Of a DNA stretch of 64,000 nucleotides, positions 44,346 to 49,443 are shown in pieces. Positions within the stretch are counted from its first letter, which is position 1. Every line of letters starts with the position of its first letter. Position numbers and translations under genes: made by a program. Origin of the DNA: an uncultured Solirubrobacterales bacterium (GTDB lineage: Bacteria > Actinomycetota > Thermoleophilia > Solirubrobacterales > 70-9). The notes below the pieces were generated by a model. The model had not been told where the DNA came from and did not search any database. It saw only the letters and a program-made list of their open reading frames with translations. Location: NCBI GenBank assembly GCA_963766115.1, contig CAVXYR010000006.1, positions 177,514 to 241,513 on the forward strand. Direction: 5' to 3'.

Positions 44346-45316
44346 TCAGGTGGCAGCGCCCACCGGGCCGAAGTCGTACTCGACTCCGGTCAGGTCGGTT
44401 GAGATCTGCCAGAGGCGGTCGGCGATCTCGGGGTTCTCGGCCTTTGACCTGGGGGCGACGATCACCGGCGACCCGCGGTGCTCTCCGTGGCCGTCCGGAC
44501 CGATGTAGCTTCCGCCGGCCAGATCGGGAACGGTCGCCGCGTAGAGCGTCGGCAGGGCCCCTGCTTCGGCGTCCTGCGCGATGGTCCAGTTGCCGAGTTT
44601 GAGCAGCGGCTTGCTGATCAGCGCCATGATGTCGCTGCCCAGACCGGTGCCCGCCGCCTGTAGGTTGGTCGCCGAGTAGCCGGGATGTGCCGCCATGCTC
44701 TCGATGTCGAGACCGGCCTCGGCCAGTCGCTTCTGCAGGTCGAGCGCGAAGACCAGATTGGCCAGCTTCGACTGCCCGTAGGCCGACCAGCGCCGGTAGC
44801 TCTGTTCGCGTTGAAGGTCGTCGAAGTCGAGCTGGCCCATCTTGTGAGCGTTGCTGCTCACGGTGACTATCCGGACGCCGGGCACTTTCTTGAGGCTGTC
44901 GAGCAGTAGCCCGGTCAGCGCGAAGTGGCCGAGATGGTTGGTCCCGAACTGGAGCTCGAAACCGTCGGCCGTCTCCTTGCGCGGCGGGGCCATCACGCCG
45001 GCATTGTTGATCAGCAGGTCGATCCCGTCGGGGTAGTCCGCGATGATTCGGGCGGCGAAGGATCGCGGACCGAGTCCAGGCTGGCCAGGTCGAGTTCACG
45101 AACCTCGAATTGCGCGGCGTCACCGCCGGAGCCGATCTCGTCACGCATCTGCTCGACCGCGGCCTCGCCCTTGCCGACATCGCGGCAGGCGACGATCACC
45201 TTCGCGCCCTTACCGGCCAGCTCGCGAGCCGCGACCAGCCCGATGCCGCTGTTTGCACCGGTGACGATTGCCGTCCTGCCGGACTGGTCATCCATGTCAT
45301 CCGCATTCCAACCCAT
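44346..45316 (-). pseudogene. Short-chain dehydrogenase/reductase (classical SDR), frameshifted near 45058-45066
   Basis: The N-terminal part (track ORF 45011-45316) has TAIVTGANSGIGLVAARELA...[13 protein letters not shown]. The other frame continues [27 protein letters not shown]...VSSNAH...YGQSKLAN (track ORF 44346-44996). Span is 3n+2. Confidence 0.75.
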
Positions 45317-45353
45317 GATCTACGTATGAGGCTACCCCTTTACTCTTTGCGGG

Positions 45354-46796
45354 ATGGCTTCACTACTCCAGGAATACGCGGGCGACCGCTCCTACCTCGG
45401 TCCCCCGCCGGAAGGGTCGTGCAGCGGGGCGGCCGGTGGCGCCGCCTGCGGTGACCTTGCCCGAATCTCTCTGAGGGTCACCGACGGCAGTATCCCGGCG
45501 GTCAGCTTCGACGCGGAGGGCTGCGCCGCGACCCGGGCCGCCTGCGCCTGCCTCTGTGAGATGGTCGACGGGGCCGGCGTGCTCGAGGCCGCGCGAATCG
45601 GTCCAGAAGAGATCGAAGCCTGGCTCGGCGGCCTCAGTCCGGCCGGAAAGCATGCCGCCGTGCTGGCTGCGGATGCCCTCCACCGGGCGCTTTCGGAAGC
45701 CGCTTCCTCGGGCGCCCGGCTGGCCGAACCAAACCCCGATCGGGTGCTGGTCGCCGTTTCCGGGGGGGTCGACAGCGCGGTCGCAGCGCTCCGGGAACGT
45801 GAGCGCGGGGCCGAGGTCGTCGCGGTCACGGTCAAGCTCTGGGCCGACCCCGATACCGATGGGACCAAGGCCTGCTGCTCCCCCGAGGCCGTGCTCGGCG
45901 CACGGGCGGTCACCCACTCACTCGGAATCCCGCACTTCACGCTCGATCTCGAAAGTCGGTTCCGGGAGCGGGTGGTCGGCGAATTCGTCGACGGCTACCG
46001 CCGCGGCCAGACCCCCAACCCCTGCGTGCTCTGCAACGGCGAGGTCCGGATCGCGGCGATGGTCGCCCTGGCCGACCGCCTCGGTGCGAGCCATCTGGTC
46101 ACCGGCCATTACGCCCGGATCGTCGATGACGGCGAGGGGACACTGCTGGCGGAGGGCCAGGACGGAGACAAGGACCAGAGTTACATGCTGGCGGCCCTGC
46201 CGACCGAGGTGATCGCGCGGCTGCGTTTCCCCCTGGCCGAGATCACCAAGCGTGAGGTACGCCAGATCGCCGAGCGCCACTCCCTGGCGGTCGCGAAGAA
46301 GCCGGAAAGCCAGGACCTCTGTTTCCTGGCCGGTCAGGACAAGCGGGATTTTCTCCGTCGCCATGGTGGCCTCGAGGACCGGTCCGGCGCCGTACTCAAC
46401 AGCCGGGGAGAGCGACTGGCCGGCCATCAGGGACACCACAACTTCACGGTGGGCCAGCGCCGCGGCCTGGGCGTTGCCGCCGGCAGGCCGCTGTATGTCA
46501 CCGGAACCGACGCCGGTTCGAATACGGTCACGGTCGGGCCGCGTGAAGAACTGAGCGCGGACCGGGTGATCGTGCACGGAGCCGTCATGCACCGGGACGG
46601 CGCTACCGTCGACCGGGTCCGTCTGCGCTACCACTCTCCGGCGGTACGGGCCACGGTCGCGGCCGGCACCGGAAGTCACGACTCGCTGGAGCTCAGGCTG
46701 GAGGAGCCATTCGATGGTCCCGCTCCCGGTCAGGCGGCAGTGATGATGAACGGCGACACCGTGGTCGGCCACGCCACGATCGCCGGCAGGCGATGA
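45354..46796 (+). CDS. mnmA: Fusion protein: IscU/SufU-like N-terminal domain plus tRNA 2-thiouridine(34) synthase MnmA
   Basis: 480 aa. Residues 1 to approx 125 have GGAACGD...FDAEGCAATRAA...GKHAAVLAADAL (IscU-like, but HAA replaces the third-Cys HCS). The rest has the PP-loop VAVSGGVDSAV, then NPCVLCNGEVR, DQSYML and SQDLCF. Confidence 0.85.
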   Translation: MASLLQEYAGDRSYLGPPPEGSCSGAAGGAACGDLARISLRVTDGSIPAVSFDAEGCAATRAACACLCEMVDGAGVLEAARIGPEEIEAWLGGLSPAGKHAAVLAADALHRALSEAASSGARLAEPNPDRVLVAVSGGVDSAVAALRERERGAEVVAVTVKLWADPDTDGTKACCSPEAVLGARAVTHSLGIPHFTLDLESRFRERVVGEFVDGYRRGQTPNPCVLCNGEVRIAAMVALADRLGASHLVTGHYARIVDDGEGTLLAEGQDGDKDQSYMLAALPTEVIARLRFPLAEITKREVRQIAERHSLAVAKKPESQDLCFLAGQDKRDFLRRHGGLEDRSGAVLNSRGERLAGHQGHHNFTVGQRRGLGVAAGRPLYVTGTDAGSNTVTVGPREELSADRVIVHGAVMHRDGATVDRVRLRYHSPAVRATVAAGTGSHDSLELRLEEPFDGPAPGQAAVMMNGDTVVGHATIAGRR

Positions 46797-46812: not shown

Positions 46813-49443
46813 ATGAAATCGGACCAGATCAGGGAAACATTCCTGGAGTTCTTCGAGCAGCGCGACCACCGCCGGGTTGCCTCTGCTTCGCTGATTCCGC
46901 CGCCGGAGGACACTTCGACTCTGCTCACGGTTGCCGGCATGCAGCCGTTCAAGCCGTACTTCATGGGCCGCGAGAAGCCGCCGGCAAAGCGCCTGACCTC
47001 GAGCCAGACCTGTTTCCGCACCCCCGACATCGAAGAGGTCGGCAAGACCCTGCGGCATCTCACCTTCTTCGAGATGCTCGGCAACTTCAGTTTCGGTGAC
47101 TACTTCAAAGACGAGGCGGTCAGGTACGGCTGGGAGCTTTCGATCGAGGGCTTCGGATTCGATCCCGCAGAGATCTGGGTCACCGTTTTCGGAGGTGACG
47201 AAGAACTCGGTCTGGGCCCCGACGAGGAGGCGATCGCGATCTGGCGAGACCTCGGAGTTCCCGACGAACGGATCGTCAAGTTGCCCAGGTCGGAGAACTT
47301 CTGGCAGGCCGGCGGGGTCGGTCCCTGCGGCCCCTGCTCGGAGATGTACCTTGATCGCGGCACCGATTTCGGCGCACCCGGGGACCGGCCGGGAGATGAC
47401 ACCGACCGCTTCCTCGAATACTGGAACCACGTCTTCATGACCTATGAGCTGGGCGAAGACGGTGGTCTGACTCCGCTACCCAGCAGGAACATCGACACCG
47501 GTCTGGGCCTCGAGCGGATGGCGGCGATACTCCAGGACGTGCCGTCGGTCTACCAGACCGACCTGTTCGCACCGCTGATCGAGCTGGCCGAACAGAAAAG
47601 CGGCAGGACCTACGACTCCGACCCCGACACGACAAGGGCGATGCGGATCGTGGCTGACCATTCAAGGGGCATGACCTTCCTCCTGGCGGCCGGTGTGGTG
47701 CCGTCGAACGAGGATCGCGGCTACGTTTTGCGGAGGGTCATGCGACGGGCGATCCAGCAGGGTCGCACCCTCGGGCTTGAGGGGTCCTGGCTCGGTGAGT
47801 TCACCGACCGCACGATCGAGATCATGTCAGGGGCGTATCCGGCTATCGCTGCCGAGCGGGAACGGGTCGACCGCTGGGTCGGGACCGAGGAGGAGAGCTT
47901 CGGCCGTACGCTGGACCGTGGGACGGCCCTGCTCGAGCAGCTGGTCGAACGGGCGATCGCGGCAAAGAACTCCTGGATCTCGGCCGACGACGCATTCAAG
48001 CTGCACGACACCTTCGGTTTCCCCTACGACCTGACCCGCGAGATGATCGCGCGGCGCGGCCTCTCGGTTGACAGCGGGGGCTTCGAGGAGTTGATGGAGG
48101 CCCAGCGAAGGAGGGCGCGGAGCGGCGCCGCGGGGGGCGCCCGCGGCGAGCGCCACTCGAGGGTCCAGGACTTCGCGGTGAGTGGTCCGCCGAGCGAGTT
48201 CGTCGGCTACCGCTATCTGCGCTCGGAGACCGGGCTCGGCGCGCTTTCGGCCGAAGACGGGTCAGCCCTGGCCAAACTCGAAGAGAGCCCCTTCTACGCG
48301 GAGGGCGGTGGCCAGGTCGCCGACAGCGGACGGGTCGCCTGGGACGGCGGCGAGGCCCGGGTGACCGATGTGATCAGGGTCGGCGACGACCAGGTGCTGG
48401 AGATCGAGCAGGTATCGGGGGAGTGGCCGCCCGAGCCCGGTTCGACCGTCGAGGCCGAGGTTGACCGCAGCCGGCGCTTCCGGACCATGCGCAACCACAC
48501 CGCGACCCATCTGCTTCACGCCGCCCTGCGTGAGCGGCTCGGCGACCACGTGCATCAGGCCGGCTCGGCGGTGCGCCCGGACAAGCTTCGCTTCGACTTC
48601 AACCACGGAGAGGCGCTGAGTCCGGAAGACATCTCGGCGATCGAGGACCGGGTCAACAGCTGGATCAAGGCCGGAGAGCCGGTGCGCTGGATGAACATGG
48701 AAAAGGGCGAGGCAGAGCGGCTGGGCGCGATGGCGCTGTTCGGCGAGAAGTACGGCGACTGGGTCCGGATGGTCGAGGTCGAAAACGTCTCGCGTGAGCT
48801 CTGCGGCGGCACCCATGTGGTCAACACCGCCGAGATCGGGATCTTCAGGATCGTCTCGGAGAGCTCCAGCGCGGCCAACGTGCGCCGGATCGAGGCGATA
48901 ACCGGTCCCGAGGCGATCGACTGGTTTCGCGAGCGGGCCGGGGAACTGGCCGAGGTCGGCCGGCTGCTCGGCCGGGACCGGGACCCGGTCGGGGCCGCCC
49001 GCAGCGCGGCCGAGCAACTCGAGGAGGCGGCCCGCGGGGCCAGGAAGGCCGAACAGCAGCAGCTCGGCTCCCTCGCGGTCGAGCTCGCTTCCACGGCGGA
49101 GCAGGTCGGCCCGGTGGAGGCCGTGATCGGCACCGTGCCGGTGGCCAACCCGAAACAGATCCTGGCCCTTGCCAAGGCGGTCCAGTCTGAGAAGAAGGGC
49201 GTCGGCGTGGTCCTCGCCGGTGCCGATCCCGGCTCGGGCAAGGCCGGGATGGTGGCCCTGTTCGACCCGGCCGACGCCGGCGAGAAGGTTTCGGCCCGGG
49301 AGTTGATCGGCGAGGCCGCCGGCCGGATCGGCGGGGGAGGCGGTGGCAGCGATGAAATGGCCCAGGCGGGTGGCAAGAACCCGGATGGCCTCGAGGCGGC
49401 ACTCGAAGCGGCCCGCGCTTATCTCGAGTCGAGACCGAGTTGA
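46813..49443 (+). CDS. alaS: Alanyl-tRNA synthetase
   Basis: 876 aa. Has FEMLGNFSFGDYFK, the editing domain with HTATHLLHAALR, and the C-terminal DHHA1-like region. Confidence 0.95.
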   Translation: MKSDQIRETFLEFFEQRDHRRVASASLIPPPEDTSTLLTVAGMQPFKPYFMGREKPPAKRLTSSQTCFRTPDIEEVGKTLRHLTFFEMLGNFSFGDYFKDEAVRYGWELSIEGFGFDPAEIWVTVFGGDEELGLGPDEEAIAIWRDLGVPDERIVKLPRSENFWQAGGVGPCGPCSEMYLDRGTDFGAPGDRPGDDTDRFLEYWNHVFMTYELGEDGGLTPLPSRNIDTGLGLERMAAILQDVPSVYQTDLFAPLIELAEQKSGRTYDSDPDTTRAMRIVADHSRGMTFLLAAGVVPSNEDRGYVLRRVMRRAIQQGRTLGLEGSWLGEFTDRTIEIMSGAYPAIAAERERVDRWVGTEEESFGRTLDRGTALLEQLVERAIAAKNSWISADDAFKLHDTFGFPYDLTREMIARRGLSVDSGGFEELMEAQRRRARSGAAGGARGERHSRVQDFAVSGPPSEFVGYRYLRSETGLGALSAEDGSALAKLEESPFYAEGGGQVADSGRVAWDGGEARVTDVIRVGDDQVLEIEQVSGEWPPEPGSTVEAEVDRSRRFRTMRNHTATHLLHAALRERLGDHVHQAGSAVRPDKLRFDFNHGEALSPEDISAIEDRVNSWIKAGEPVRWMNMEKGEAERLGAMALFGEKYGDWVRMVEVENVSRELCGGTHVVNTAEIGIFRIVSESSSAANVRRIEAITGPEAIDWFRERAGELAEVGRLLGRDRDPVGAARSAAEQLEEAARGARKAEQQQLGSLAVELASTAEQVGPVEAVIGTVPVANPKQILALAKAVQSEKKGVGVVLAGADPGSGKAGMVALFDPADAGEKVSARELIGEAAGRIGGGGGGSDEMAQAGGKNPDGLEAALEAARAYLESRPS

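Follow-up and report, generated by a model that had tools for sequence, protein, structure and literature searches.

An IscU-type domain fused to the N-terminus of a C-type MnmA tRNA thiolase in Solirubrobacterales: a possible sulfur or iron delivery module

The fused gene and its domains

The window, a 64,000-nucleotide stretch of DNA from an uncultured Solirubrobacterales bacterium (GCA_963766115.1, contig CAVXYR010000006.1, positions 177,514 to 241,513), carries a gene that fuses a domain of the NifU_N/IscU scaffold type to the tRNA thiolase MnmA. The open reading frame (ORF) lies on the forward strand at 45354..46796, as do all features of the fused gene given below. It starts with ATG, encodes 480 amino acids plus stop and is a single open frame with zero internal stops. 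It is an in-frame fusion of a NifU_N/IscU-type domain and a full MnmA.

The N-terminal IscU-type domain comprises residues 20–118 (45411..45707). Pfam NifU_N matched residues 23–114 (cut-off 22), scoring 59.3 bits when the full-length protein was used and 63 bits with residues 1–130 alone. The best U-type NCBIfam model was the Clostridial NifU with 57–61 bits. IscU and NifU equivalog cut-offs are 188–273 bits, and the domain scored far under all equivalog cut-offs for IscU, NifU and SufU. Searches with phmmer against solved IscU/NifU structures gave gapless alignments to 7c8m (E 2.9e-14) and 4eb5_C (E 1.8e-13). In these alignments, C32-G-D34 is the CGD motif, C57 the GC motif and H100-A101 the H-C motif. 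Alanine 101 stands where the motif has its cysteine. The initial annotation had recognised an IscU-type N-terminus on MnmA, with an alignment made by eye and the third scaffold cysteine lost; the profile and phmmer matches bear out all three points. The possibility it had raised, that no significant IscU/NifU hidden Markov model match would be obtained, did not materialise.

The MnmA body matched the NCBIfam equivalog NF001138 with 342.8 bits (cut-off 284; model positions 1–345 of 345 covered) and TIGR00420 with 281.6 bits (cut-off 236.95). It begins with the PP-loop/HUP catalytic domain, residues 130–326 (45741..46331), recognised by Pfam tRNA_Me_trans (PF03054) with 217 bits. The SGGVDS PP-loop named in the initial annotation is present at residues 136–141 (45759–45776) of the translated ORF. 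The tRNA-binding domains follow at 46347..46781: a PRC-barrel (tRNA_Me_trans_M, PF20259, residues 332–395) and a C-terminal beta-barrel (tRNA_Me_trans_C, PF20258, residues 421–476).

Relatives were searched with a score on residues 1–128 alone. The search returned 4448 proteins and the best 120 were examined. All 120 had NifU_N and MnmA domains, were about 480 amino acids long and came from independent assemblies; those with a taxon name belonged to Solirubrobacterales or Thermoleophilia. Relatives are encoded at 77 genome loci, and most align starting at residues 1–25. The fusion is found in a single frame in >100 independent assemblies, complete chromosomes included. Truly separate nifU and mnmA genes, as in the Thermoleophilia family f6 and in Clostridia, have clearly visible stops or frame changes between them. 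Two genes artefactually joined by a missed stop or a frameshift near 45720 had been a concern of the initial annotation. This explanation is ruled out and has practically no probability left, because one frame is open in the window and across >100 independent assemblies and the N-domain is conserved at the protein level. The in-frame fusion thus stands as first described, on an uninterrupted ORF and 120 best matches of the same two-domain make-up.

Conservation and predicted metal site

Residue conservation was assessed in an alignment of 117 of the best 120 relatives. C32, G33, D34, C57 and H100 are invariant in 117/117 sequences, and position 101 is alanine in 117/117. The cysteines C23, C64, C66 and C68 vary among these relatives and were ruled out as a substitute third ligand. 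In the N-domain, 23% of the positions are invariant. Its mean pairwise identity (0.69) equals that of the PRC-barrel (0.69) and is higher than that of the C-terminal barrel (0.64); the catalytic domain has 0.80 and the short variable linker, residues 119–129 (45708..45740), has 0.39. An AlphaFold2 model based on an alignment of 108 sequences (pLDDT 91.8, pTM 0.90) presents the protein as one rigid body with a well ordered linker (pLDDT 96–97). In Foldseek superpositions of the predicted model, the N-domain fitted IscU from IscS-IscU complexes with a root-mean-square deviation (rmsd) of 1.4–2.0 Å and SufU with 2.7–4 Å; the fit to 4eb5_C had an rmsd of 1.6 Å and a TM score of 0.78. The predicted MnmA body was placed on the E. 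coli MnmA-tRNA complexes 2det and 2deu with TM scores of 0.86–0.87.

In ISCU, Fe2+ or Zn2+ is held by Cys35, Asp37, Cys61 and His103, and Cys104 is the persulfide receptor, unbound to metal; the catalytic cysteine of NFS1 reaches the metal by exchange with Cys35 (PMC8924461). The invariant residues of the fused domain align exactly with these four mononuclear Fe/Zn ligands: C32 and D34 (C32-G33-D34, 45447..45455) with Cys35 and Asp37, C57 (45522..45524) with Cys61, and H100 (H100-A101, 45651..45656) with His103. The sole loss in the alignment is that of the receptor Cys104, replaced by A101. Because this cysteine is missing, canonical [2Fe-2S] building should no longer be possible. We infer that the fused domain has a complete predicted mononuclear metal site and is unable to run the canonical ISC assembly reaction. 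A functional IscU has three cysteines, an aspartate and a histidine that hold the forming [2Fe-2S] cluster; the alanine at position 101 in 117/117 relatives and scores under the IscU and NifU equivalog cut-offs set the fused domain apart.

The domain is not a SufU either. The Zn site of SufU is Cys/Asp/Cys/Cys, and the cysteine of its CGD motif takes the SufS persulfide once a SufS histidine displaces that cysteine on the zinc (PMC10216065). C32 aligns with this acceptor cysteine. SufU identity was ruled out by TIGR01994 scores of 25.8–29 bits (cut-off 92.5), the C/D/C/H site, the IscU-like predicted fold and the presence of a complete, separately encoded SufU. The term SufU-like in the initial annotation was therefore a poor fit. 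Its description of the scaffold as partly degenerate is misleading for this lineage: with the four remaining ligands invariant in 117/117 relatives and forming the ISCU-type Fe/Zn site, the N-domain is not in decay.

The MnmA half is of the C-type

C-type MnmA enzymes have a CC-CxxC-C motif in place of C-DxxC-C (PMC7025502). This motif is present in the MnmA body as C174-C175 (45873..45878), C224-V-L-C227 (46023..46034) and C323 (46320..46322), all invariant in the 117 relatives. In Thermus MnmA, C105, C108 and C200 ligate a [4Fe-4S] cluster which is essential for activity (PMC7025502). C224 and C227 correspond to C105 and C108, and C323 to C200. The MnmA body is therefore classified as C-type, a predicted [4Fe-4S]-dependent enzyme. 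The initial annotation had taken the cysteines of NPCVLCN and SQDLCF as catalytic. Since CC-CxxC-C defines the C-type and three such cysteines bind the cluster in Thermus MnmA, they are rather predicted cluster ligands and not persulfide-carrying catalytic residues. The MnmA half was C-type in every out-of-class protein checked. In vitro, either IscS or SufS, given cysteine, was able to provide Thermus MnmA with sulfur; the same study mentions neither IscU nor NifU nor any fusion (Shigi et al. 2020, PMC7025502).

Sulfur machinery of the host genome

The host genome has a size of 2.55 Mb and is 91.6% complete. The fused gene encodes its only MnmA, the tRNA thiolase for the wobble uridine. SufS (570 bits) is the only cysteine desulfurase found. 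The suf cluster (contig C7:330170-336052) has an unusual gene order: an Rrf2 regulator, sufC, sufS, a glyoxalase/FosA-like ORF, sufU and sufB. The SufU is complete (CGD...GC...K-C; C/D/C/C site) and short (128 amino acids), with 93.2 bits barely above the cut-off of 92.5. A desulfurase of the IscS/NifS-type was detected neither in the host genome at this completeness nor in the 25 other genomes of its order (0/25). A second class-V aminotransferase gene (Aminotran_5) on contig C2 was ruled out as a hidden IscS; it encodes a BhcA/PhnW-like transaminase.

TusE delivers sulfane sulfur to MnmA in E. coli. A comparable relay, with a TusE/DsrC-family protein rather than the fused domain as the sulfur donor of MnmA, was considered for the host. 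Contig C3 (188941-191066) encodes a type III sulfide:quinone reductase (SQR; NF049943, 565 bits), then a TusE/DsrC-family protein and then a DsrE2-like protein. The family protein has a single C-terminal cysteine and reaches 101.7 bits (subfamily cut-off 53.5), but it obtains only 86.9 bits with the TusE equivalog (cut-off 191). TusA was not found in the host genome, and the only DsrE-family match was the DsrE2-like gene, TusBCD not having been searched with their own equivalog models; an E. coli-type Tus relay was thus not recognised. The C3 cluster is probably an acquired module for sulfide oxidation or sulfur trafficking, and the TusE-like gene is missing from all 25 other genomes of the order (0/25), which carry the same fused MnmA. 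It is therefore not the general sulfur route and is ruled out as such at the order level. Delivery by this protein in the host itself is very improbable.

The initial annotation had suggested that the fusion takes the place of the Tus relay or of a dedicated desulfurase partner. The absence of TusA agrees with the first part, which is qualified by the strain-specific TusE/DsrC-family gene beside the SQR. The second part does not hold across the lineages with the fusion. In Rubrobacteraceae and in the families f10 and f11 the fused gene adjoins its own nifS, and therefore works with a dedicated desulfurase there instead of replacing it.

Distribution, origin and ligand states

The distribution was surveyed in 151 genomes of the class and 301 of the phylum, from which representatives were fetched. 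Deep-branching actinobacteria commonly carry the fusion. It is present across Thermoleophilia and Rubrobacteraceae, and its carriers include metagenome-assembled genomes (MAGs) placed in Conexibacter woesei and Rubrobacter, which are cultured taxa. No true fusion was seen outside Actinomycetota. Coverage in tblastn searches had hinted at fusions in Clostridia and Desulfuromonadota. These were ruled out, as stops or frame changes part nifU from mnmA.

The fusion arose from a nifS-nifU-mnmA operon. Evidence for this origin comes from the separate genes in f6, Clostridia and Desulfuromonadota and from the position of nifS directly ahead of the fused gene in f10, f11 and Rubrobacteraceae. In f6, nifS, nifU and mnmA are separate, NifU has all five residues (Cys-Asp-Cys-His-Cys) and the IscS/NifS-type desulfurase is present and adjacent in 25/25 genomes. 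Lachnospiraceae (e.g., Roseburia lenta, Sellimonas intestinalis) and Desulfuromonas/Geopsychrobacteraceae likewise have separate nifS, nifU and mnmA and all five residues.

The ligand state of the fused proteins differs between lineages. In f10, f11, part of f8 and f61, the third cysteine is kept and the histidine is lost; these lineages have an IscS/NifS-type desulfurase, whose gene immediately precedes the fused one in f10 and f11. The families f1–f5, which include the window, have C-D-C-H-(A/G). IscS/NifS-type enzymes are missing in f1–f4 (0/25), and weaker matches (143–195 bits) occur in 22/26 genomes of f5. Rubrobacteraceae (f22) share C-D-C-H-A and have nifS directly upstream. Only two cysteines remain in f24 (Actinomycetota MAGs), with no IscS/NifS-type gene in the searched stretch of about 1.9 kb upstream. 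Only the first cysteine remains in f9, where 22/24 genomes have an IscS/NifS-type desulfurase. In f7, about 75 amino acids of the N-domain are left as a remnant with no ligands, and the desulfurase is absent (0/23). By lineage, the ligand counts form a series of 5, 4, 2, 1 and 0, with the MnmA half unchanged.

Two families had further peculiarities. The MnmA ORFs of f7 encode about 420 amino acids (loci L091-L094 and L105; also L073 and L076), and the remnant has neither cysteine ligands nor a Pfam NifU_N match; it is recognisable only by alignment to fused relatives. The family f9, whose fused IscU domain is the most ligand-depleted of those that are full-length, has TusE/DsrC-family genes in 24/24 genomes, mostly in two copies. 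In several f9 genomes, an IscS-type desulfurase domain lies within open frames of about 1150–1300 amino acids (e.g., G018:C9:8486-9640, G054:C20:139007-140125 and G072:C10:6784-7902). These long frames suggest a large multidomain desulfurase fusion.

Gene neighbourhood

The gene order around the fusion is aspS, enoyl-CoA hydratase (ECH), a divergent short-chain dehydrogenase/reductase (SDR), the fusion, alaS, ruvX, mltG and aroE. No desulfurase gene is adjacent, as stated in the initial annotation. The stop codon of the fusion is followed after a 16-nucleotide gap by alaS (46813..49443, +), and then by ruvX, mltG and aroE. A promoter and terminator scan around the gene gave no match, with no terminator-like site between the fusion and alaS, and the five genes from the fusion to aroE are probably co-transcribed. 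The start codons of the SDR gene and the fusion are divergent and 37 nucleotides apart (45317-45353). Neither a sigma-70-like promoter nor an obvious Shine-Dalgarno sequence was seen in this stretch, so both transcripts are possibly leaderless. The SDR gene (44346-45316, −) has one frameshift near 45040-45070. Pfam adh_short positions 2–59 and 99–188 are matched in two ORFs, and the split reflects either pseudogenisation or an error in the assembly.

Possible function of the fused domain

Of the explanations considered, we favour a docking or sulfur hand-off role: stabilised by its metal, the N-domain may link a desulfurase (SufS in this host) to the MnmA cluster. We give this proposal somewhat less than an even chance. 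A cysteine desulfurase would dock on the fused IscU-derived domain. Sulfane sulfur would reach the [4Fe-4S] cluster of MnmA at its open iron site, either straight from the loop cysteine of the desulfurase or via C32. Thiolation of adenylated U34 by the cluster would follow. The docking partner would be NifS, encoded by the adjoining gene, in Rubrobacteraceae and some Thermoleophilia. In the order of the window, SufS is the only candidate, because no IscS/NifS-type enzyme was found there. The general idea of the initial annotation, a covalently attached module for sulfur or Fe-S delivery, is supported by this analysis, with its specifics corrected. The strongest argument for a function is that the four ligands, together with much of the domain, are strictly invariant in two separate classes, and the constraint on the N-domain (0.69) matches that on the tRNA-binding domains of MnmA (0.69, 0.64).

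Several observations weigh against a hand-off module. The strongest is the natural decay series of ligands in sister lineages, which speaks against an essential chemistry. C-type MnmA stays intact while the domain loses nearly all ligands in f9, keeps two cysteines in f24 and shrinks to a remnant of about 75 amino acids in f7; the chemistry of the domain is therefore dispensable over evolutionary time. Across the families, the ligand state does not follow the desulfurase repertoire in any simple way. Any relay would need a non-canonical route, since the cysteine that takes the persulfide in the canonical ISC pathway is the one missing. Type I desulfurases are the normal partners of the IscU-type fold, but the host has only SufS, a type II enzyme which already has a SufU of its own.

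The same decay series, with MnmA unchanged down to the truncated form, is the main support for a structural relic. The transfer chemistry would then be lost, the domain would be kept for folding, stability or oligomerisation of MnmA and the four ligands would hold a structural Zn. IscU is commonly isolated with bound Zn, and Zn stabilises its structured state. The failure to find a cognate type I desulfurase in the host or the 25 other genomes of the order and the modelling as one rigid body are also in line with a relic. However, the conservation goes well beyond the ligands, with 23% invariant positions and an identity equal to that of the tRNA-binding domains, and C-D-C-H-A is kept in the separate class Rubrobacteria with an adjacent nifS, which points to function. 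As most of the domain can be removed in f7, its retention elsewhere suggests selection beyond folding. We regard the relic as a doubtful explanation for the lineage of the window.

Alternatively, the metal of the domain rather than sulfur may be what is delivered. The site would bind Fe2+, or a His/Asp-ligated cluster, and re-metallate or rebuild the labile MnmA cluster in situ. This would be useful in aerobic soil bacteria, since C-type MnmA needs an oxygen-sensitive [4Fe-4S] cluster held by three cysteines with one open iron site. C32, D34, C57 and H100 match exactly the Fe2+ entry site of ISCU and are invariant in the order of the window and in Rubrobacteraceae. But sulfide cannot be made the ISC way without the receptor cysteine, the genome has a full SUF system for cluster supply, and a C-type MnmA persists in f7, f9 and f24, where such residues are few or absent. 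Iron or cluster supply is thus unlikely, less so than the E. coli-like relay discussed above. Returning to the hand-off module, a wider scenario can be drawn, which is itself doubtful: the fused domain would be a new dedicated sulfur (or iron) delivery module, re-wired from type I NifS to type II SufS and feeding the open iron site of MnmA directly, and the series 5, 4, 2, 1, 0 across Thermoleophilia and Rubrobacteria would record a path from scaffold to relay to relic.

It is debated how MnmA-type thiolases obtain the sulfur that they insert and whether the [4Fe-4S] cluster is its carrier (PMC7025502, PMC8053098, PMC11784392). The fusion may show how C-type MnmA enzymes get their sulfur. As a natural fusion of an IscU-derived module and a C-type MnmA, it offers structural and kinetic studies a complex of fixed 1:1 stoichiometry. 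Natural variants that can serve as ready-made mutants are found by lineage, with C-D-C-H-A in Solirubrobacterales and Rubrobacter, C-D-C-x-C in further families, and the two-cysteine, one-cysteine and truncated forms. With an IscU-type domain conserved and no IscS/NifS found in the order of the window, the domain must either engage in cross-talk with SufS or act through its metal only. If the domain is a delivery module, the protein is a one-polypeptide model for the sulfur acquisition of Fe-S-dependent tRNA thiolases.

Comparison with known systems

Public databases name the fused protein simply MnmA, and a literature search for MnmA fused to NifU or IscU found no description of the fusion. 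To our knowledge, no characterised MnmA has an N-terminal IscU-like domain. New in this analysis are the comparison of ligand state with desulfurase content by family, the match of the retained residues to the Fe/Zn site of ISCU, SufS as the only available desulfurase in the order of the window and the strain-specific TusE/SQR cluster.

The closest characterised enzyme for the MnmA half is TtMnmA of Thermus thermophilus (PMC7025502), with which it shares CC-CxxC-C, the SGGVDS PP-loop and the three-domain body. TtMnmA lacks the approximately 128 extra N-terminal residues that form the IscU-like domain. The N-domain resembles the scaffolds IscU and NifU (Archaeoglobus fulgidus IscU 4eb5, Methanothrix IscU 7c8m, human ISCU) in sequence, predicted fold and Cys-Asp-Cys-His site. 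It differs from them in that the third cysteine, persulfide receptor and cluster ligand, is gone, that it is covalently joined to a client enzyme and that no cognate IscS/NifS was found in the host genome or 25 others of the order. With SufU of B. subtilis and M. tuberculosis, a Zn-dependent sulfurtransferase partner of SufS that serves as a sulfur relay and no longer as a scaffold (PMC10216065), the domain shares a U-type fold, a four-ligand mononuclear site, a CGD cysteine aligned with the acceptor cysteine and a host with SufS as its only desulfurase. SufU has Cys/Asp/Cys/Cys with a lysine before the last cysteine, unlike the Cys/Asp/Cys/His of the fused domain. The YrvO-MnmA pair of B. subtilis and the iscS-iscU-mnmA operons of Clostridia and Desulfuromonadota link the same functions. 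Unlike in the nifS-nifU-mnmA operons, nifU and mnmA are joined in one polypeptide in the lineage of the window, and nifS is gone.

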